DNA of 64,000 nt, from sequence record PZ053912.1; one strand, written 5' to 3'. The notes under the pieces were generated by a model. That model saw nothing but the letters and a program-made list of their open reading frames with translations. It was not told the DNA's origin and ran no database searches. This DNA is from a phage. The position numbers and the translations under genes were made by a program. Of the stretch, positions 11,156 through 52,297 are shown piece by piece. Within the stretch, counting starts at the first letter, position 1. The number at the start of each line of letters is the position of its first letter.

Positions 11156-11189
11156 CTTATTATACTCCAAATGGGACCGAAGTCCCATT
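11156..11189 (-). promoter_or_regulatory. UUCG-tetraloop hairpin (AATGGGAC-UUCG-GUCCCAUU on the transcript) directly after the regA stop, abutting a TATAAT element upstream of gene 43
   Basis: Seen directly; hairpin 11170-11189, TATAAT (minus) at 11156-11161. Confidence 0.4.
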
Positions 11190-11192
11190 GCT

Positions 11193-20037: not shown

Positions 20038-20066
20038 TGAGAGCATTATACTCTGCTCTCAAGAGT
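20038..20066 (-). promoter_or_regulatory. Early sigma70-type promoter (TGTACA-17-TATAAT) with inverted repeat GAGAGCA/TGCTCTC flanking the -10
   Basis: Seen directly; near-identical 47-nt copy at 49741-49788. Confidence 0.5.
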
Positions 20067-26242: not shown

Positions 26243-26502
26243 TTAAAATATTCTCGTAGTTGGTCAAAGCCACCGATCGAAGTTCCATCAGGAGCAAACA
26301 CTTGAGGCATAGTCAATCCAACTTGTGATTCACGTCCAAGCTTAACCAGAAGCTCAGCAATTTTCTCATCATCGAACACACCTTTTTCTGGCATAACATT
26401 AATGAATTCGAATGGTTGTTTCTTAACAGTCAGCAATCGTTTCGCATTATCGCAATAAATGCATTTATGAATAGTAGAGTCATACCCGTACACTTTAAAC
26501 AT
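26239..26502 (-). CDS. nrdC: Glutaredoxin NrdC
   Basis: MFKVYGYDSTIHKCIYCDNAKRLLTVKKQPFEFINVMPEKG... matches recalled T4 NrdC; AAGGA before the internal ATG. Confidence 0.9.
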   Translation of the reverse strand: MFKVYGYDSTIHKCIYCDNAKRLLTVKKQPFEFINVMPEKGVFDDEKIAELLVKLGRESQVGLTMPQVFAPDGTSIGGFDQLREYFK

Positions 26503-26908
26503 TATTTTTCCTTTCATCGATTAAATATGCAATGCCAAATACAATACATATAATAAAACCTGTGATACAGATAGAAACCAACAACACTGTACCAAAGAAC
26601 CAAATCAAGTTATCTTTAGTAGTTTGTTTGATATCCATCTCACGAATTTCTATAGCTATCGTATCACCTTTATTCAGAAGCGTATAAAACGATGGCGATA
26701 CACGCCTGTCAAAAACTCGTCCTTGCTCATCTTTATAGACTGCAATAAATTCTAATTTAGAATATTTTCCTGTAGATTGGCCTGAGATTAATTCCACTAC
26801 CTCCACAGGAATTACTTTAGTTTCCATGTAAGTATTCTGGCTGTTCCAAATGAATGGAATAATAGCAAAAACTAAAGCTGCGATAAAACAACGAAGGCTA
26901 TATCTCAT
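26495..26908 (-). CDS. Membrane protein, hypothetical
   Basis: 137 aa; N- and C-terminal hydrophobic spans. Confidence 0.45.
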   Translation of the reverse strand: MRYSLRCFIAALVFAIIPFIWNSQNTYMETKVIPVEVVELISGQSTGKYSKLEFIAVYKDEQGRVFDRRVSPSFYTLLNKGDTIAIEIREMDIKQTTKDNLIWFFGTVLLVSICITGFIICIVFGIAYLIDERKNNV

Positions 26909-27213
26909 TATAATGTTCTCTCAAATTTGTGGAAGCATTTACGGCATTTCAATTTCAAGTTATCAGTGGTCCAGTTAACCAGTTGGACTTGGATAGTTCC
27001 ACATTCCGGGCACGGATGTTTTGCTGCCGATTTGGCAGCATTTTCACGTCGTTCAACCATTTTCATTATTTCGTTCCATGCCGGAGGAACGAACTCTTCT
27101 TCACCGTGGATTTTATCTCGCTGAACAAATTCAATCTTTGAACTATCGTCAATAAACTTAACCAAGCCGTGATTAGTGCTCATATCAATATCCTCTAAAA
27201 GACGTAGTTTCAT
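26908..27213 (-). CDS. Zn-ribbon-like hypothetical protein
   Basis: 101 aa; CPECG ... CRKCFHKF. Confidence 0.45.
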   Translation of the reverse strand: MKLRLLEDIDMSTNHGLVKFIDDSSKIEFVQRDKIHGEEEFVPPAWNEIMKMVERRENAAKSAAKHPCPECGTIQVQLVNWTTDNLKLKCRKCFHKFERTL

Positions 27214-28157
27214 TATAAAACCTCAATGGCATTTCGTAAACCATCAGCTTTTGCATTCAGAGCTTTTAATGATTTAGTTTGTTCTGCAATCTGGGCTTCG
27301 ACTTCTTTCAGGCGAGATTTGAGATATTCGCGTTCTTCTCTTAAGTTATCAACTTTTTCTGCTTTAGGCTCTTTAATAGGCTTATACTCGTTATGGTTCT
27401 TCAACTTAATTTGAATGCGAGAACTGTATAACATTGAACCATTATCTTCGGTTTCATCATACATTTCTACCACGTCCATGATTCTTAACATCATGCGAAG
27501 TTTATAAGACAGCGAACGAATGGTTTTGTTGTGCTTATTAATTTCTTCGGCTTTCATGGTACCGAGATTACGTGAGTAGTAATAAGGAACCTGGATATCA
27601 ATTGATAATGATGCGGTACCATTACCTGTTGGTTTGAACACTGCAGTAACCCAATCTTTAGCATGAACTGTATTTGTACGATCATCGCCACCTGTGAATA
27701 ATTTACGTGAATGTTTAAAAAGCATATTCACTTGGTTATTGAATTCACAAGCAAATTTATCAGCAAATTTAGTTTCAGGAATGGTAGATAACCAATCAGC
27801 CAAATGAGTCTTTTTAACATCGTTAATAATAGTAAATTCAACTAAATCAGTTTTAGATGTCACAGATTTAATAAAGCTCGGCTTCATAAAGTTTTTAATG
27901 TTATCACGAGCTACAGTAGAAGATAATAAACGAGAACGTTTGAACCATTGAAGCAGTGTCCCTAATGAATGAGAATATGCATTCTGAGTATCTTTACAGA
28001 TATGATTTTCTTGGCCTGTGTATGTACCAAAATCGCGAAGAATACCACTTACTACAACTCGGTGTGGAACATCAAATCCTAATGAACCAGAAGCACGTTG
28101 GGCATGAACGTTAGCGATAAGACCTGCAAAATAATCAATGTAATGTGAACGTGTCAT
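27213..28157 (-). CDS. Hypothetical protein with C-terminal coiled coil
   Basis: 314 aa ORF. Confidence 0.55.
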   Translation of the reverse strand: MTRSHYIDYFAGLIANVHAQRASGSLGFDVPHRVVVSGILRDFGTYTGQENHICKDTQNAYSHSLGTLLQWFKRSRLLSSTVARDNIKNFMKPSFIKSVTSKTDLVEFTIINDVKKTHLADWLSTIPETKFADKFACEFNNQVNMLFKHSRKLFTGGDDRTNTVHAKDWVTAVFKPTGNGTASLSIDIQVPYYYSRNLGTMKAEEINKHNKTIRSLSYKLRMMLRIMDVVEMYDETEDNGSMLYSSRIQIKLKNHNEYKPIKEPKAEKVDNLREEREYLKSRLKEVEAQIAEQTKSLKALNAKADGLRNAIEVL

Positions 28158-28185
28158 AATATTTTCCTCTCGTTAAGATAGAAAG

Positions 28186-28214
28186 ATTATACTCCAACCA
28201 TCCTTGGTTGTAAA
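28186..28214 (-). promoter_or_regulatory. Early promoter (TTTACA-17-TATAAT) with hairpin CAACCA-AGGA-UGGUUG inside the spacer
   Basis: Seen directly; same architecture at 29182-29210 and 50056-50084. Confidence 0.5.
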
Positions 28215-28219
28215 CTGAT

Positions 28220-29155
28220 TTATGATTTTAATGCATTCATTGCGTTAAAAAGTTTAGAGTACTGCAACTGGAGCTTGGTAACTACTTGTTGAGCATCACG
28301 AAGCTTAGCTTGTGCTTTGTCAAGTTCAACAGACAGTTGGTCCACAGTGGCTTTGATTTGATTATAATAGTAATCTTCGGCAGGAAGAAGACCGTTAGAG
28401 ATTTCCAGTTTAGTCGACGGTGAAGTGTATATAGATGGAGCAGTAAAATATGCACCTTGAACTTCAGCATTGCCAATTGGGGTTGTAGTAATTGACGCTT
28501 CGAACGTTGCATTTTCCTTTTTAAGATTTTTATAATATTCAGAGTCTTTGTGCCACCATGGCGCAGGAACCTTTTTACCAATAGATACACGAGCCTGGAT
28601 AGCGATATGGCCCTTATTCTTGATAGGGTTGATAATATTAAGCTCACGAGAATAAATTGCTTTAATCTGGTGAATATTATCACCTAACACTTCCAACGCT
28701 TGGTGGAATACACGAGCAACGTTATCATTCTTAGGTTTATACGTAAGAGTGAACTCGTTCTCACTGATAACCATGATTTCTAACTTATCGTAAGTATATT
28801 TCAAATGTTTCATGTTAATTGCTTGAGGACGAATACGAGAAGCAATGGCCATCAGATTGTTAAGGTTATTTCTGAACTGTTTAGCAAAATATTGTCCTTC
28901 ACCGCCAATACAAAAATTACGAAGTTTCTGTTTGGCTAATAAACGGCTGAACTCACCATTTTTAATGAACTCTTTAACGGGTGTGTTAGTAACGCATTCA
29001 AATTGAGTAAACTTACGAGAATTAATCCCATAATATGAACAGATTTCCTCAATCTCTTCAGGAGTCTTTACAGGCATACGGATAGGATTAGGTCCTGGGG
29101 TATATGCGTTCGAGGTAAATTCTTTGATAAGTTCTCTACGTGTAATAGAAGCCAT
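28220..29155 (-). CDS. Hypothetical protein
   Basis: 311 aa ORF. Confidence 0.55.
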   Translation of the reverse strand: MASITRRELIKEFTSNAYTPGPNPIRMPVKTPEEIEEICSYYGINSRKFTQFECVTNTPVKEFIKNGEFSRLLAKQKLRNFCIGGEGQYFAKQFRNNLNNLMAIASRIRPQAINMKHLKYTYDKLEIMVISENEFTLTYKPKNDNVARVFHQALEVLGDNIHQIKAIYSRELNIINPIKNKGHIAIQARVSIGKKVPAPWWHKDSEYYKNLKKENATFEASITTTPIGNAEVQGAYFTAPSIYTSPSTKLEISNGLLPAEDYYYNQIKATVDQLSVELDKAQAKLRDAQQVVTKLQLQYSKLFNAMNALKS

Positions 29156-29181
29156 TTTATATTCCTCATGTTGAAAAATTT

Positions 29182-29210
29182 ATTATACTCCAACCATCCT
29201 TGGTTGTACA
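29182..29210 (-). promoter_or_regulatory. Early promoter (TGTACA-17-TATAAT) with the CAACCA-AGGA-UGGUUG spacer hairpin
   Basis: Seen directly. Confidence 0.5.
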
Positions 29211-30206
29211 TCATTCCTTAAGAAGTTTTACTACCTGAATAAGATTAGCTCGTTCTGTTTTATTTTTACTGTTTAAGCCTGCTAATCGTGAGATTTCATC
29301 GTCAGTCTGTTGAATAGTTACATTAAGTTCGTTAATCAAAGCTTCAAAGTATTTGATTTGCTCAGCATGTTTTGATTCGAATTTCTGAACCGGAATAACG
29401 TCTTGGTTTAGTTCATCAATAAGGTCTTTAAGAGCATCTTCTTGGTTGATATCATATTCAACTTCTTTTATTTCTTCAACGAGCTCGTCTTTATATCTAA
29501 CGTCTTTTAGTCCTGGTGCTGGTCCTGAAATCTCTTCTTTAAGAGTACAAACATATCCAATACGGTATCCAATGCTGTCTCGCTTGATATCAACTTCGTC
29601 GATAAATCCACAATGTTTAAGTCCAGAGCCGATTAGGTCAAAATATCCTTGACGTCGTCCTTCAAACGTTACACGAACTACTAAGACAGTTTTACCTGCG
29701 ACCTTTTGAAGCTCACATTTATAAAAGTCTGTTGAACCTGAATAACGTGGATGAGTTTTAAAGTTCATCTGACGATCTAGGCCCATTTGTAAGCGTGCTG
29801 ATACGGCCATAAAACGTGTTTGATTCTCGTTAAGATGAGCAACAATCCATTTCAAAGGCATTTTACACTGTTCACGACCGAACAAATCAGTACGTCCTAG
29901 ATTACGCAGGATGTTGTTAGAGTTAATCATCGACAGAACGTTAAGTTTATTCAGCGCGCTGAAGATTCCATCGGCCATTGATTTTCCGTAACCTTTACAC
30001 GCTTTAATAAGCGCTCGTGGTAGGTTAGTATAGATTTCAGACGGCATATGAAAATCAAATTTACTAGTCAGTAATTGATGAACTTGGATAGCAATTTGCT
30101 CATAATTAAGTGCTCTGCGATCATTATGGTCTTTAAACCACACTTTAATCTGTGAAGCACATAAACCGTTAATTTCATGTTTTACCGCATCAGATGTAAT
30201 GCTCAT
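29211..30206 (-). CDS. Hypothetical protein
   Basis: 331 aa ORF. Confidence 0.55.
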   Translation of the reverse strand: MSITSDAVKHEINGLCASQIKVWFKDHNDRRALNYEQIAIQVHQLLTSKFDFHMPSEIYTNLPRALIKACKGYGKSMADGIFSALNKLNVLSMINSNNILRNLGRTDLFGREQCKMPLKWIVAHLNENQTRFMAVSARLQMGLDRQMNFKTHPRYSGSTDFYKCELQKVAGKTVLVVRVTFEGRRQGYFDLIGSGLKHCGFIDEVDIKRDSIGYRIGYVCTLKEEISGPAPGLKDVRYKDELVEEIKEVEYDINQEDALKDLIDELNQDVIPVQKFESKHAEQIKYFEALINELNVTIQQTDDEISRLAGLNSKNKTERANLIQVVKLLKE

Positions 30207-30268
30207 AACTATTTCCTCAGATTGAATTGGAACTCAAAACCATTATAACCCGTCCTTGGGTAAAGCGT

Positions 30269-30796
30269 TTATGCGTGAACCGTCTTTAAACGTTCTTCAA
30301 ATTTCCGAAGAGTACTAATACGTTCTGCTTTCTGTTTTGTATAGTTTGCAATACGTTCTGAAGTGAGAGCGTATCGTTCGTTTACTGTTTCTTTCATGAA
30401 GTCAGGGATTTCACGAGAAGCTTTAATTTCATCAAACTTATCGAGTACTGCCTGGTCTTCAGCAATTAAATTTTCGTACATCTCGATATCTTTCTTGATG
30501 AAGTCGATATCTTCCTGGGTTACTTTGGATAAACGAGATGCTTTATCCTTTTTGTACTGCTCGTTAGTTTCACGAGACCAGAATAATGTACGTTTTTTGT
30601 TAGTGTTTTTGTAGACTTCCACAATTCCAACTGAATCGATGATAACAATCCAATTCCAGCGAGATTTGAAAATCTGACCTCCGTCCACGGTAATCTCGTT
30701 ACCATAAGCAACGTCATTAAAGAACTTGCTTTGTGCTTCAGATTTAAATTTACCGTCGTTATAATTTACCAGGTTGAAAATATCTTTAGCGTTCAT
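30269..30796 (-). CDS. Hypothetical protein
   Basis: 175 aa ORF. Confidence 0.55.
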   Translation of the reverse strand: MNAKDIFNLVNYNDGKFKSEAQSKFFNDVAYGNEITVDGGQIFKSRWNWIVIIDSVGIVEVYKNTNKKRTLFWSRETNEQYKKDKASRLSKVTQEDIDFIKKDIEMYENLIAEDQAVLDKFDEIKASREIPDFMKETVNERYALTSERIANYTKQKAERISTLRKFEERLKTVHA

Positions 30797-30823
30797 GTTT
30801 TACCTCCAGTAGTTGATAGGTCT

Positions 30824-30852
30824 ATAATAACATAAACATAGACCTTGTAAAC
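30824..30852 (-). promoter_or_regulatory. Early promoter (GTTTAC-17-TATTAT) with AGGTCTAT/ATAGACCT arms around the -10
   Basis: Seen directly. Confidence 0.45.
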
Positions 30853-30854
30853 AA

Positions 30855-31142
30855 CTAAAAGAAACTTTTTTCGGTATTTTTTCCACTGAACCAAACCGAC
30901 TTCGGGACTTTCTGTAATTTTTCGGATTTAAGTTTCTCTTCCTGTTCTTTCTTATATGCATCCTTGTCGTACTGGAACAACTCTAGGGCATTCTTTTGCA
31001 AACGATCTAAGGTAATTAAGGCTTTAGTTTTTCCTTTCAAGGAAGAGTCCTGGCGAACCTCCTCGCTATATTGCATCGTAGAACTAACCATACGATGAGC
31101 ATAGAGTTCTACTGCGGCTTTAATTTTTTGCATAAAATCCAT
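30855..31142 (-). CDS. Hypothetical protein
   Basis: 95 aa ORF. Confidence 0.45.
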   Translation of the reverse strand: MDFMQKIKAAVELYAHRMVSSTMQYSEEVRQDSSLKGKTKALITLDRLQKNALELFQYDKDAYKKEQEEKLKSEKLQKVPKSVWFSGKNTEKSFF

Positions 31143-31280
31143 AACATATCCTCTTTGATTTGTACATCATTATTTTTAAATATTTCTATGCCCTCAGTAG
31201 GTTCCTGGTGTCCTTATTTGAGGTAAGCCATATGATTATTCATCTTTATGGCTTTTGTTACCTCAGGACTTCCTGTAAGC

Positions 31281-32261
31281 TTATTTCAGTAAAGTTACTT
31301 CAGAGATTTCCTCCCAACCATCTTTATCAGTTGAAATAAAATCTGCTACGTAAAGAGCCGTACGTAATGATACATTGCGAAGACGAGATACGTTAGCCTT
31401 CATCCAGGACAATGCTTTATACGTTTCTGCATCCGTCAGACCACGTTTCTGCATCATGTCAGTAGATAATATTACATCTTCAACTCGAACCATAATCTCT
31501 TCATTAGAGTGTACTCCAAGGTCGAGATACACTGAACGAGATACTAAAGCTTGAAGGTGTGGGGCAAGTTTCGAACCGCGTTCTAACTCTTTATCGATAT
31601 CAACGTTAGTAATGAAAACGATAGTACCTTCAAACTCAAATTCTTTATCAATACCCTTATCATCGAGATAAGATGACGCAGTGCTCCAACAAACTTTGCG
31701 TTTATCTCCAGTATCTAATGCTGCTTTAAGAAGGTTCAAGATGTCCATATCTGAGAATACGTCAACGTCGTCGATTAAGAGAACGCTGTCTGCATCACGG
31801 TTGAGCCAAAGTTGTTCGTAAAGGCCGATACCAGAGATTTTACCATTAATGCTTTTGTATTTGATGAAACCATTATCATTAGCGTTATTAAGTGCTTTAT
31901 CCAGAGAATACGTCTTACCAATACCGGCTGCACCTGAAATAATGAGTGAACGAATTTTGCCATCAATAATGCCATTCGTCATCATGTTCATTACTTTAAA
32001 GCGTTTGTTGATACGAGTTTTCATATCTTCAGTGCTTTCAACAACTGCAACTGGTGACGTCTCAACTCCTTCCATTACGATGTCTGATTTGAAGACCCAT
32101 ACTCCACGTTCAGAACCATCAATCATAACGAAAATTTTGCCATCACCTAAGTGGGAACATTCAGGATTAAGCTTTGCCGGGAACCAGGTCTTTGTGGCAA
32201 CATAAGAACCAGAGATTTCGTTATTACGATAGATACCTTTTTTGATTTGAACGTTGAACAT
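31281..32261 (-). CDS. P-loop ATPase (AAA-like), hypothetical
   Basis: Walker A ISGAAGIGKT and Walker B-like LLIDDVD; start moved to MFNVQIK after GAGGAGAA. Confidence 0.6.
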   Translation of the reverse strand: MFNVQIKKGIYRNNEISGSYVATKTWFPAKLNPECSHLGDGKIFVMIDGSERGVWVFKSDIVMEGVETSPVAVVESTEDMKTRINKRFKVMNMMTNGIIDGKIRSLIISGAAGIGKTYSLDKALNNANDNGFIKYKSINGKISGIGLYEQLWLNRDADSVLLIDDVDVFSDMDILNLLKAALDTGDKRKVCWSTASSYLDDKGIDKEFEFEGTIVFITNVDIDKELERGSKLAPHLQALVSRSVYLDLGVHSNEEIMVRVEDVILSTDMMQKRGLTDAETYKALSWMKANVSRLRNVSLRTALYVADFISTDKDGWEEISEVTLLK

Positions 32262-32289
32262 TTTATTCTCCTCTTGTTTTGATAGGTCT

Positions 32290-32318
32290 ATAATAACATA
32301 TCCTAAAAGCATGTACAC
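32290..32318 (-). promoter_or_regulatory. Early promoter-like element (TGTACA-16/17-TATTAT)
   Basis: Seen directly; lies inside the N-terminal extension of track ORF 31281..32318. Confidence 0.4.
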
Positions 32319-32347
32319 TACTTTTTTAAAAATATTTTAACCCCATA

Positions 32348-32365
32348 AAGGGCCCGAAGGCCCTT
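32348..32365 (-). terminator. Hairpin AAGGGCC-UUCG-GGCCCUU directly after the stop of the 328-aa gene
   Basis: Seen directly; weak U-rich tail. Confidence 0.45.
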
Positions 32366-32366
32366 A

Positions 32367-33353
32367 TCATTTATAGTATGAATTGTGGTTTTCTAAGTAG
32401 ACTTGCTCAAGGAAGTCATCCCAGAAACTCATATCTACTTTTTGTTGCATACCATTCTTGGCAGCTTGTTCTGACGCATGTTCAACTTGGTCAACGATAT
32501 CTTCTAGGAATTCTTGTACAGTTTTAAACGTATGTTTACCAAGCTTAACATCGAGAATAAATGGAGCATCCTGAAGTGGGTAAACCAGGTCGCCGGTTTT
32601 GTAAATTTCCAATAGTTGAAGTCCACCGCGACATGCATGACTCAGTGCTTTCCAGTCAATACCTTCGTTAGCTTCTGCCTTACGAGCACGTTCACCATAG
32701 TTCTCTTCCAGTTTAACCAGGATGGCATTGAACTCTTTATTGGTTAACGTGTCTTGGAATTTACGGTCTAACAGATTATAGAATGTTTGCTTACCTGTTT
32801 TCTCGTTTTCGGTTTCAACCCATGAAGCAAATTCACCTACAGGCAGAACATTCTTCATATGTGATAAACGAATTACTGCACCATTATCAAAGTATTGTCC
32901 CCATTCATTAGAACGTTTAAGGGCTTGACGAAGAACAGCCAGTCGAGAACCCTTGACACCGTATTTAGAAGCTTGCTTACGGACATACCCTAAATAAGAT
33001 TTCATGTTAGTGGTATAGAAACGAGACCTGTTGTCTTGAATATACTTCCATACATCAGGCAAATCGGATTTAACTACTAAACTTGGCGGAGTGTGAAGCA
33101 TATCTAATGCGACAGTTTCACCATCCGCAGCTAGTTTAAAGAAATATTTGAGACTATACAACTCATGGTCCACGTCGTCTTTTGTGTTCTTAGAAGATGT
33201 GTTATTCGTGTTCTTGCTCATGTGTTCTTTAACGTTACCGGTCAAGATATCACGAGCATGAGGGACATAAATTTCTTTAAAATCGACGTCAGATTCAGGA
33301 GTAGACGTTCCATAAAGGTGGCTACCAAAGTAAGCCTTAACAATCGTTTTCAT
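32367..33353 (-). CDS. Nucleotidyltransferase-fold protein (pol-beta superfamily-like)
   Basis: 328 aa; N-terminal GSHLYGTSTPESDVDF resembles the G[SG]...DxD nucleotidyltransferase signature. Confidence 0.5.
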   Translation of the reverse strand: MKTIVKAYFGSHLYGTSTPESDVDFKEIYVPHARDILTGNVKEHMSKNTNNTSSKNTKDDVDHELYSLKYFFKLAADGETVALDMLHTPPSLVVKSDLPDVWKYIQDNRSRFYTTNMKSYLGYVRKQASKYGVKGSRLAVLRQALKRSNEWGQYFDNGAVIRLSHMKNVLPVGEFASWVETENEKTGKQTFYNLLDRKFQDTLTNKEFNAILVKLEENYGERARKAEANEGIDWKALSHACRGGLQLLEIYKTGDLVYPLQDAPFILDVKLGKHTFKTVQEFLEDIVDQVEHASEQAAKNGMQQKVDMSFWDDFLEQVYLENHNSYYK

Positions 33354-35043: not shown

Positions 35044-35095
35044 TTCTCCTCTAGTAAGTAAGATCTACTATAACACAACCTGAGGAGAAGTAAAC
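35044..35095 (-). promoter_or_regulatory. Early promoter (GTTTAC-17-TATAGT) enclosed by 8-bp arms that pair the SD (GAGGAGAA) with an upstream anti-SD
   Basis: Seen directly; arms at 35044-35051 and 35082-35089, -10 at 35067-35072. Confidence 0.5.
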
Positions 35096-38833: not shown

Positions 38834-39292
38834 CTAGATTTTAATCACTGCTTTAGAAGCTTTTCCTGGTAGTCGTTTACTGTTAATAATAGCCATTCTG
38901 CATTGAAGAGTCTTCATTTTGAATGCTGGATTTTCGCGACAAACTGTAAGTCCTAACCAAAGATTTCCATCAGTTATTTCTAAACGGCCTGGACGATATT
39001 CGACACCTTCGACAAAATCTTCATCAACATCTGGACGTGCCGGCATTGATAAAAATTCTGCAACTTCTTTAACATGATTTTTTACTTTACGAAATAATTC
39101 AAAAACGTAATTCTCATCTATTTCTCTCTGGATGGCACGATCTAAGAGATGTTGAGAATACTTGATATGAAAGCCTGGTAGTCCAAGAGACTTTGCAGCA
39201 TCTTTTATACCGGCATTTATTTTGCGGAACTCCGTTTCAAAGATTCGACGGAGTTTATTACGGCGGATAAAAACGTCAGAATTGATAGTCAT
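38834..39292 (-). CDS. regB: RegB sequence-specific endoribonuclease
   Basis: MTINSDVFIRRNKLRR...HIKYSQHLLDRAIQREIDENYVFELF...YRPGRLEITDGNLWLG...CRMAIINSKRLPGKASKAVIK matches recalled T4 RegB. Confidence 0.9.
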   Translation of the reverse strand: MTINSDVFIRRNKLRRIFETEFRKINAGIKDAAKSLGLPGFHIKYSQHLLDRAIQREIDENYVFELFRKVKNHVKEVAEFLSMPARPDVDEDFVEGVEYRPGRLEITDGNLWLGLTVCRENPAFKMKTLQCRMAIINSKRLPGKASKAVIKI

Positions 39293-39300
39293 TTTTGATT

Positions 39301-39350
39301 TCTCCTCTAGTTGACAGGTCTATAGTAACACATCTAGAGGAGAAGTAAAC
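39301..39350 (-). promoter_or_regulatory. regB early promoter (GTTTAC-17-TACTAT) enclosed in a 10-bp hairpin pairing the regB SD with an anti-SD in the promoter spacer
   Basis: Arms UCUCCUCUAG (39334-39343) and CUAGAGGAGA (39301-39310); -10 at 39322-39327. Confidence 0.55.
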
Positions 39351-42346: not shown

Positions 42347-42400
42347 TTCCTCCAAGTAGTTGATGAATGTATAGTATCAAAACCCTTGGAGGAAGTAAAC
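42347..42400 (-). promoter_or_regulatory. denV early promoter (-10 TACTAT at 42371-42376) enclosed in a 10-bp hairpin pairing the denV SD with an anti-SD at the -35/spacer
   Basis: Arms ttcctccaag (42347-42356) and cttggaggaa (42385-42394) on the plus strand. Confidence 0.5.
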
Positions 42401-49798: not shown

Positions 49799-50026
49799 TT
49801 ATTTTTTAATCAAATTGACATAAAACTCGGCGTCTTCCGGGTGCATGCCTTCGCAGTATTCTTCAACCATGAACTTCTTAACGGCTTCATAAGGACCACT
49901 CAGATTAAGCTCAGTTGTCCAGAACTTGGAATCTTGGACTGAATCGATACGAACTTCAGGGTGACGGTTGCGAATAACTTCTTCGGTGTATTCATAATCA
50001 ACGACATCAATACTAACTGTAGCCAT
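49799..50026 (-). CDS. Hypothetical protein
   Basis: 75 aa ORF. Confidence 0.45.
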   Translation of the reverse strand: MATVSIDVVDYEYTEEVIRNRHPEVRIDSVQDSKFWTTELNLSGPYEAVKKFMVEEYCEGMHPEDAEFYVNLIKK

Positions 50027-50055: not shown

Positions 50056-50084
50056 ATAGTATCACCATCCTTGGTGCTTGTACA
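50056..50084 (-). promoter_or_regulatory. Early promoter (TGTACA-17-TACTAT) with spacer hairpin CACCA-AGGA-UGGUG
   Basis: Seen directly. Confidence 0.45.
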
Positions 50085-50616: not shown

Positions 50617-50645
50617 ATAGTAACACATCTAGGGAAGAAGTAAAC
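50617..50645 (-). promoter_or_regulatory. Early promoter (GTTTAC-17-TACTAT)
   Basis: Seen directly. Confidence 0.45.
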
Positions 50646-52055: not shown

Positions 52056-52132
<77 letters not shown>

Positions 52133-52136
52133 ATGC

Positions 52137-52210
52137 CTCGAATTGGTGACCCTGGCTGGTTTCGATCCAGCTACCTATCAGTTATGAGCTGACAGCTCTC
52201 CCATTGAGCT
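52137..52210 (-). tRNA. tRNA with CAU anticodon (Met, or Ile if lysidine-modified)
   Basis: Cloverleaf drawn by hand: acceptor GGCCCUG/CAGGGUC, D-arm GCUC/GAGC, anticodon loop CUCAUAA, T-arm GCUGG-AUCGAAA-CCAGC, encoded CCA. Confidence 0.8.
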
Positions 52211-52297
52211 ACAGGGCCTAAATAACTTTCTATTATGAAAGGCACTTTAGAGTACCTTTGGTAATAGAGGGTATGAATTAATAATAACACATAATTC

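Follow-up and report, generated by a model that had tools for sequence, protein, structure and literature searches.

Promoter-early stem-loops (PeSLs) have been described in the T4-like phage pairs RB49/phi1, PST/T4 and nt-1/KVP40 (Arbiol et al. 2010, PMC2839356; Comeau et al. 2014, PMC4122927). In a PeSL, AT-rich DNA and a sigma-70-like promoter are combined with a stem-loop and with a Shine-Dalgarno (SD) sequence and ATG; PeSLs are intergenic, repeated and concentrated in hyperplastic regions (PMC2839356, PMC4122927), and their stem-loop can occupy five positions relative to the promoter, including the one between -35 and -10 (PMC2839356). One PeSL stem-loop lowered the expression of a downstream lacZ gene like a strong terminator, and recombination between PeSLs deletes the intervening ORF (PMC2839356, PMC4122927). 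Start-site-dependent RNA structures are further known from the T4 genes e, soc, 49 and I-TevI (reviewed in PMC3014915), while the target of the T4 endoribonuclease RegB acting with S1 is the 11-nt single-stranded GGAGRAYARAA, for which GGAGUAUAAAA of the motB leader is the model substrate (PMC1702504).

Here, we analyzed a 64,000-nt stretch of phage DNA (sequence record PZ053912.1; the window), in which a sequence-only reading had pointed out promoters with a hairpin in their spacer as a second promoter class. Judged by their sequence, these AGGA-hairpin cassettes fit a subclass of PeSLs with the stem-loop between -35 and -10, and promoter-embedded stem-loops in T4-like phages are thus already published (PMC2839356, PMC4122927); no description of PeSLs in Mosigviruses was found in the literature. 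Like PeSLs, they are repeated intergenic promoter/stem-loop cassettes whose stem-loop may sit between the two hexamers, and an ORF has been deleted between copies. Whereas published PeSL stems are GC-rich (G-tract/C-tract) in RB49/phi1 and of the AGNA...TCNT type in PST/T4, the stem described here is a weak helix of 5-6 bp that closes an invariant AGGA tetraloop and is supported by covariation.

Anatomy of the AGGA-hairpin cassettes

A 4-kb piece around the first site shared 99% identity with Escherichia phage DCP548 and 97% with JS09, a Mosigvirus (Straboviridae, Tevenvirinae), which identifies the window as belonging to an RB69/JS09-like T4-type phage. Its G+C content is 37% (average A+T, 63%). 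The sites and the genes that they are predicted to serve are as follows.

28186..28214, minus strand: C1, TTTACA-N17-TATAAT; predicted early promoter in the 62-nt intergenic gap before nrdC.3
28195..28210, minus strand: C1 hairpin CAACCA-AGGA-TGGTTG (-6.9 kcal/mol; pairing probability 0.97 in the modelled read-through RNA; covariation)
27213..28157, minus strand: nrdC.3 (314 aa), gene served by C1
29182..29210, minus strand: C2, TGTACA-N17-TATAAT; predicted early promoter in the 55-nt intergenic gap before nrdC.5
29191..29206, minus strand: C2 hairpin CAACCA-AGGA-TGGTTG (folding, covariation, read-through RNA model)
28220..29155, minus strand: nrdC.5 (311 aa, DUF7235), gene served by C2; lies between two 27-nt repeats and is missing in phage F2
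50056..50084, minus strand: C3, predicted early promoter TGTACA-N17-TACTAT, upstream of frd.3
50063..50076, minus strand: C3 hairpin CACCA-AGGA-TGGTG, wholly within the spacer, with no GGAG after the stem
49799-50026, minus strand: frd.3 (PF05798), gene served by C3
30242..30264, minus strand: C4, a fourth, degenerate short-form copy, between nrdC.8 (upstream gene) and nrdC.6 (downstream gene)

The sequence supports C1, C2 and C3 as predicted sigma-70-type early promoters of the phage. C1 (28214 to 28186) reads TTTACA-accaaggatggttggag-TATAAT, its spacer also being given as ACCAAGGATGGTTGGAG, and matches the sigma-70 consensus at 11 of 12 positions. C2 (29210 to 29182) reads TGTACA-accaaggatggttggag-TATAAT (spacer also given as ACCAAGGATGGTTGGAG), with the stop codon of nrdC.6 abutting its -35, and C3 (50084 to 50056) reads TGTACA-agcaccaaggatggtga-TACTAT (spacer also given as AGCACCAAGGATGGTGA), whose -10, TACTAT, is a variant that this phage uses repeatedly. 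At all three sites the spacer measures 17 nt, the gap from stop codon to next ATG 55-62 nt, and an SD sequence with ATG follows 26-29 nt past the -10; the 25 nt upstream of C1, C2 and C3 contain 76%, 68% and 88% A+T, respectively. The three locations, all on the minus strand, and their description as phage sigma-70-type promoters with a small AGGA-loop hairpin in or at the spacer therefore agree with the sequence-only reading. Its placement of the hairpin wholly inside the spacer holds for C3; in C1 and C2, the stem begins with the CA that ends the -35 hexamer.

The list of three copies was itself correct, yet it had overlooked C4. This copy (30264 to 30242) reads TTTACC-CAAGGACGGGT-TATAAT with its hexamers only 11 nt apart, and forms a stem of ACCC (30261-30258) with GGGT (30251-30248) around the loop AAGGAC; the same short form follows nrdC.8 in T4, where it lies upstream of nrdC.7, and in IME08. 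The four window copies, three of them in the nrdC cluster, together with the deletion of nrdC.5 and homology breakpoints at the -35 described below, show the repetition, hyperplastic location and insertion/deletion behavior of PeSLs, while the sigma-70-like promoter, AT-rich upstream region, stem-loop and SD plus ATG, intergenic and after a stop codon, are evident from the sequence.

C1 and C2 share an exact direct repeat of 27 nt (28186-28212 and 29182-29208, minus strand) whose copies lie 996 nt apart, and CCAAGGATGG occurs exactly three times against an expectation of 0.06, a count reached in none of 100 shuffles. The hairpins of C1, C2 and C3 have energies of -6.9, -6.9 and -5.7 kcal/mol, with z scores of -2.9, -2.1 and -1.3 over 29 nt; in 49-nt windows, the scores against dinucleotide shuffles were only -1.0, -0.6 and -0.2, and an energetic significance of the AGGA hairpin was rejected, as it is no outlier there. 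A search of the window against Rfam 15 returned only two tRNAs, adjacent genes at 52067-52218 on the minus strand (RF00005; 71 and 59 bits), and the AGGA hairpin matched no family at the gathering score. NrdC.3 and NrdC.4 are distant paralogues, and NrdC.5 and NrdC.6 are unrelated to both, which argues against a simple inheritance of the promoters along with a single duplicated gene.

The window contains further promoter-associated inverted repeats. In the main promoter class, a 9-13-bp inverted repeat flanks the -10, with its 5' arm (often AGGA/AGGG) in the spacer and its 3' arm (UCCU) in the first transcribed bases; its -10 elements end, on the minus strand, at 20045, 20345, 30824, 34617, 45397, 45665, 46960, 49770, 53685 and 54015, and folding z scores are -3.3 to -5.6 in most. 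A third class, also on the minus strand (35067-35094, 39322-39349 and 42371-42399, with a weaker member at 50617-50644), has after its -35 (TTTACT-TCTCCTCTAG or TCCTCCAAG) an anti-Shine-Dalgarno spacer of which 8-11 nt are complementary to the SD of the next gene. It serves regB among others, and the regB SD, CTAGAGGAGAA, is complementary to the spacer of its own promoter. Such an anti-SD would be present only in read-through RNA and would, by analogy, recall the start-site-dependent translation of T4 e, soc and 49. A GC-rich hairpin, AAGGGCCCGAAGGCCCTT, at 32339-32365 lies just upstream of a promoter at 32290-32317 and is terminator-like on both strands; it would correspond to a PeSL with the stem-loop upstream of the -35.

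Covariation of the stem across three genera

The gene nrdC.3 is carried by roughly 650 Tevenvirinae genomes. Homologues were gathered through the downstream protein, through DNA patterns in which the stem was unconstrained and from the annotated genomes of T2, RB14, HY03, ESCO10, IME08, F2 and T4, and yielded an alignment of 15 distinct hairpins from the window, other Mosigviruses, Dhakaviruses and Tequatroviruses, including those of T4 nrdC.3, nrdC.4 and nrdC.7. Anchored on the loop, the stems comprise CAACCA/TGGTTG, CATCCA/TGGATG and CTTCCA/TGGAGG, as well as AGCCA/TGGCT at nrdC.3 of T4, T2 and RB14, (G)CCACA/TGTGG(T) at nrdC.4 of T4, RB14 and HY03 and at T4 rIIA.1, and TTATACCA/TGGTATAA at T4 nrdC.7 and IME08 nrdC.6; some variants lose the loop-adjacent pair (AAGGAC). 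The AGGA loop and the CA preceding it are invariant in all 15 sequences.

Paired cells made up 91% of the alignment against 62% in shuffles (reached in 0 of 500), and the covariation score was 0.66 against 0.14 in shuffles (again 0 of 500), falling to at most 0.16 when the partner columns were slid by 1-3. The fourth pair occurs in all four Watson-Crick types (A-U in five sequences, C-G in four, U-A in four and G-C in two) and the fifth as A-U in nine, C-G in four, U-A in one and U-G in one; neither has an unpaired cell. Compensatory changes affect four stem positions in three genera. Since the retrieval patterns fixed at most three inner pairs, pairs 4-6 are unbiased, and among 41 unrelated IMG/VR matches to TTTAC-N8-AAGGAT-N4-TATAAT only one had four Watson-Crick flanking pairs. 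The 15 sequences are related by descent and recombination, and the cell counts overstate the number of independent events; a single event cannot explain the covariation, however, because at least four pair types occur at one position and three at another. Selection for pairing of the AGGA-hairpin stem, from T4 to Mosig- and Dhakaviruses, is therefore strongly supported by these comparisons.

The claim, made from three copies, of paired stem substitutions around a constant loop is thereby upheld on far broader evidence. For C3 itself, which had been described as changed by paired substitution, the loop-anchored comparison gives one such substitution (fifth pair, A-U to C-G) and the loss of the sixth pair.

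These data also bear on the view that the hairpin has no function and is an accident of promoter sequence, copied by duplication and recombination. The identity of C1 and C2 over 27 nt, the unexceptional folding energy and the location of most copies within one gene cluster, nrdC.3 to nrdC.8, are what such an accident would leave behind. Against it stand the compensatory changes at four positions in three genera, a score that no shuffle attained and the near absence of pairing in unrelated sequences of the same frame, and we assign this view hardly any probability.

Assignment of the pairing to a strand through wobble pairs was equivocal, as three cells hold sense-compatible G.U and four hold A.C or C.A (G.U on the antisense strand), counts that do not decide between RNA and DNA pairing. 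In Tequatroviruses, one homologue upstream of nrdC.3 (IMG/VR 2974742932) has a C.A mismatch in the stem (TAGCT) and the -10 TACAAA, while that of RB14 retains an intact stem with the -10 CATAAA; the nrdC.3 promoter may be decaying in some members of this group. T4 (NC_000866) has a second nrdC.4-type AGGA-hairpin promoter, GTTTACTTTACCACAAGGATGTGGTATAAT, at about 2405-2457 on the minus strand, upstream of rIIA.1.

Hairpin position and the read-through transcript

The position of the hairpin relative to the promoter elements varies among homologues. Its loop lies 3-10 nt from the -10, and there are copies in which the hairpin runs into the -35 and others in which it runs into the -10. It is kept where the -35 is mis-spaced (nrdC.6 of the window, T4 nrdC.7 and IME08 nrdC.6), and the short form after nrdC.8 retains the stem in T4, in a Dhakavirus and in the window phage with the -35 only 10-11 nt from the -10. 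In every copy, the hairpin starts 4-9 nt past the upstream stop codon. Owing to the variable distance, the overlaps, the conserved short form and the four pair types, the selected structure is probably not part of promoter recognition, and the proposal that the stem contributes to recognition or regulation of the promoter was not sustained.

A related proposal is that of a DNA operator in the spacer, an inverted repeat that an early protein of the phage would bind, or RNA polymerase would sense, and that would tune or shut off this promoter subclass. The core CAAGGATG is invariant, the AGGA element is always associated with a promoter, and in T4, where early promoters have extra conserved positions, the mechanism of early-promoter shut-off is unknown (PMC2988021). 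Base-specific read-out by a protein is nevertheless not expected to tolerate four Watson-Crick types at one stem position with compensatory changes elsewhere, a pattern that points to nucleic-acid pairing. The loop, moreover, is not palindromic, its spacing to the -10 can be anything between 3 and 10 bp, the register against the -35 shifts by at least 2 bp, and the short form has no properly spaced -35. Altogether, we consider an operator distinctly unlikely.

As the hairpin lies upstream of the expected transcription start, only read-through transcripts of the upstream gene would contain it. In models of this read-through RNA, the hairpin formed with a probability of 0.89-1.0 in eight of nine cases. 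With a gap of only 55-62 nt, the spacer is the only unconstrained DNA between the upstream stop codon and the start. We therefore consider, with roughly even confidence, that the sites are composite cassettes of the PeSL type in which the hairpin acts as intercistronic punctuation of the read-through RNA. Each cassette would start from an AT-rich upstream region and a strong early promoter of the sigma-70 type, and continue through a short 5' UTR to an SD sequence with ATG. Its own promoter would not transcribe the hairpin, which would fold 4-9 nt past the upstream stop codon once transcription arrives from the preceding gene. There, it could punctuate the cistrons by weakly attenuating or pausing upstream transcription, a role already suggested for PeSLs, and/or form a 3' barrier to decay that stabilizes the upstream message once it has been processed. 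As DNA, the repeated cassettes would serve as sites of homologous recombination, deleting or swapping the genes between copies. We infer both that RNA is the selected structure and that this RNA has such a role. Our literature search found no maps of T4 transcript starts or ends that cover the homologous sites.

The hairpin resembles intrinsic terminators as an intergenic stem-loop just past a stop codon, and differs from them in having no U-tract, only three G-C pairs and an energy of -6 to -7 kcal/mol. An intrinsic terminator was rejected, as the tails GAGUAUAA and AUACUAUA have no U-tract and a consensus scan of 26500-32500 did not report the hairpin. Efficient intrinsic termination is accordingly unlikely for a weak stem (-5.7 to -6.9 kcal/mol) that is neither terminator-like nor an energetic outlier; the terminator activity recorded for PeSLs comes from one GC-rich (RB49-type) stem only, and it is doubtful for the AGGA hairpin.

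A switch of SD accessibility was likewise rejected. When promoter-initiated RNA, read-through RNA and read-through RNA with a mutated 5' arm were folded for nine homologues, the unpaired probability of the SD and AUG showed no consistent effect. The arrangement shares with T4 e, soc, 49 and I-TevI a promoter in or beside an RNA structure, and read-through and promoter-initiated transcripts that fold differently. Unlike the T4 structures, which sequester the ribosome-binding site, the AGGA hairpin is local and its disruption in silico left SD accessibility unchanged, so that the start-site-dependent masking of T4 is not applicable to this class. A mini-ORF starting at the AUG of AAGGAUGG was also rejected; its SD would abut the AUG, neither the length nor the sequence of the peptide is conserved, and the AUG is lost in three lineages with AAGGAC.

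The invariance of the AGGA loop implies sequence-specific recognition, for which the read-through RNA model names no partner. Pfam and PHROGs searches with the flanking proteins returned only proteins of unknown function and gave no hint of a cognate binding protein. One candidate trans factor for a neighboring element is encoded in the window, as listed with its potential sites.

28185..28195, minus strand: C1 RegB/S1-consensus-like 11-mer GGAGTATAATC, overlapping the -10; present only in read-through RNA
29181..29191, minus strand: C2 RegB/S1-consensus-like 11-mer GGAGTATAATA, overlapping the -10
38834..39292, minus strand: regB endoribonuclease gene (Pfam PF10715, E 8.8e-69), possible trans factor for GGAG sites

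In C1 and C2, as in 10 of the 15 variants, the stem leads into GGAG and then into the -10, giving GGAGUAUAAU(C/A) in the read-through RNA. The -10 preceded by GGAG could thus be dual-coded, as a sigma-70 element in DNA and as a RegB/S1 site (GGAGUAUAAU) in read-through RNA. Cleavage at GG^AG would then detach the downstream cistron, promoter-initiated RNA would be free of the site, and the hairpin would become the protective 3' end of the upstream fragment. The regB gene is present, and the C1 and C2 sequences, GGAGUAUAAUC and GGAGUAUAAUA, fit GGAGRAYARAA, with 1-2 of their 11 positions deviating from GGAGUAUAAAA, the validated site of motB (PMC1702504). More precisely, the two 11-mers match the consensus at GGAG and at positions 6-9, carry U at positions 5 and 10, and take their first G from the last stem base; the U at position 10 speaks against the assignment, A being preferred there. 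On the early strand of the window, consensus matches outside SD sequences are confined to C1, C2 and the regA-gene 43 gap, and in all three places a hairpin lies immediately 5' of the match; T4 has the same arrangement at nrdC.3, in the gene 43 leader, upstream of gene 39 and in the motB leader. As at the T4 motB RegB site, which lies 2 nt 3' of a promoter-embedded hairpin, GGAGUAUAAU(C/A) in C1 and C2 is directly 3' of the hairpin (Durand et al. 2006, PMC1702504). The sites described here, unlike that of motB, are candidates only, and GGAG is missing from about half of the hairpin family.

The hairpin is, in particular, conserved in C3, C4, T4 nrdC.4, T4 rIIA.1 and T4 nrdC.7, where GGAG is missing, and Durand et al. 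found that RegB/S1 requires nothing 5' of GGAG (PMC1702504). The loop offers a second conceivable target, as the substrate that RegB cuts independently of S1 has a looped GGA whose two following bases are paired (PMC1702504); since 28 of 30 intergenic GGAU sites in T4 are resistant (PMC1702504), however, the GGAU of the loop is probably not cut. On balance, we regard the RegB module as unlikely. Were it true, RegB would separate the downstream cistron from read-through transcripts only and spare those that start at the promoter, which would provide a general logic for stem-loops inside T4-type promoters.

The regA-gene 43 gap (11158-11190, minus strand) contains a UUCG-tetraloop hairpin, GGGACTTCGGTCCC, followed by ATTT-GGAGTATAATA, that is, the hairpin and GGAG-TATAAT architecture without a recognizable -35. 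The sequence before T4 gene 43 matches this arrangement, and that before gene 39 does so more loosely.

Cassettes as sites of gene loss and exchange

In phage F2 (NC_054913, 2440-2560), nrdC.5 is absent and nrdC.6 is followed directly by nrdC.3. At the junction, the flank upstream of C2 is joined through the core common to both copies to the flank downstream of C1; being such a C2/C1 chimaera, it indicates that a crossover inside the 27-nt repeat removed nrdC.5. In F2, AV109, FL31 and ESCO47, homology to the window sets in at the -35, in Dhakaviruses only a 78-nt cassette of promoter and 5' UTR is similar to it, and one metagenomic contig (L248) shares with it nothing other than promoter cassettes. 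C3 looks like a mosaic, in which an AGGA-hairpin spacer is joined to a TACTAT-AGACTTATCAAC module typical of the main promoter class.

The covariation is equally compatible with pairing in DNA, and the hairpin could accordingly be a cruciform or single-strand structure that serves as a recombination hot spot (for example, as a target of endonuclease VII) or as a supercoil-sensitive promoter switch. A synthetic promoter was reportedly repressed by cruciform extrusion in its spacer (Horwitz and Loeb, 1988), which favors such a switch. Against this, 5-6 bp of stem around a 4-nt loop fall far short of what stable extrusion of a cruciform requires. The F2 deletion fits a hot spot, as do the PeSL crossovers mapped in or next to the stem-loop and the proposal that a recombination protein recognizes it (PMC2839356). 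Nevertheless, the 27-nt homology alone suffices to explain the F2 deletion, and mismatches of both wobble types are tolerated in the stem. We hold such a DNA structure to be very improbable.

PeSLs have been put forward as joints for the shuffling of accessory genes in T4-like phages, and the loss of nrdC.5 from F2 is a clean natural example of gene loss mediated by such a cassette. Recombination homology cannot account for everything, because a weak, non-terminator-like AGGA stem has been selected for pairing across T4, Mosig- and Dhakaviruses. What is added here to the published PeSLs is an AGGA-tetraloop family traced from T4 to Mosig- and Dhakaviruses, its formal support by covariation, the F2 deletion and the juxtaposition with RegB-like sites. 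T4 carries the AGGA hairpin before nrdC.3, nrdC.4, nrdC.7 and rIIA.1, where both the function of the stem and the link to RegB can be tested.
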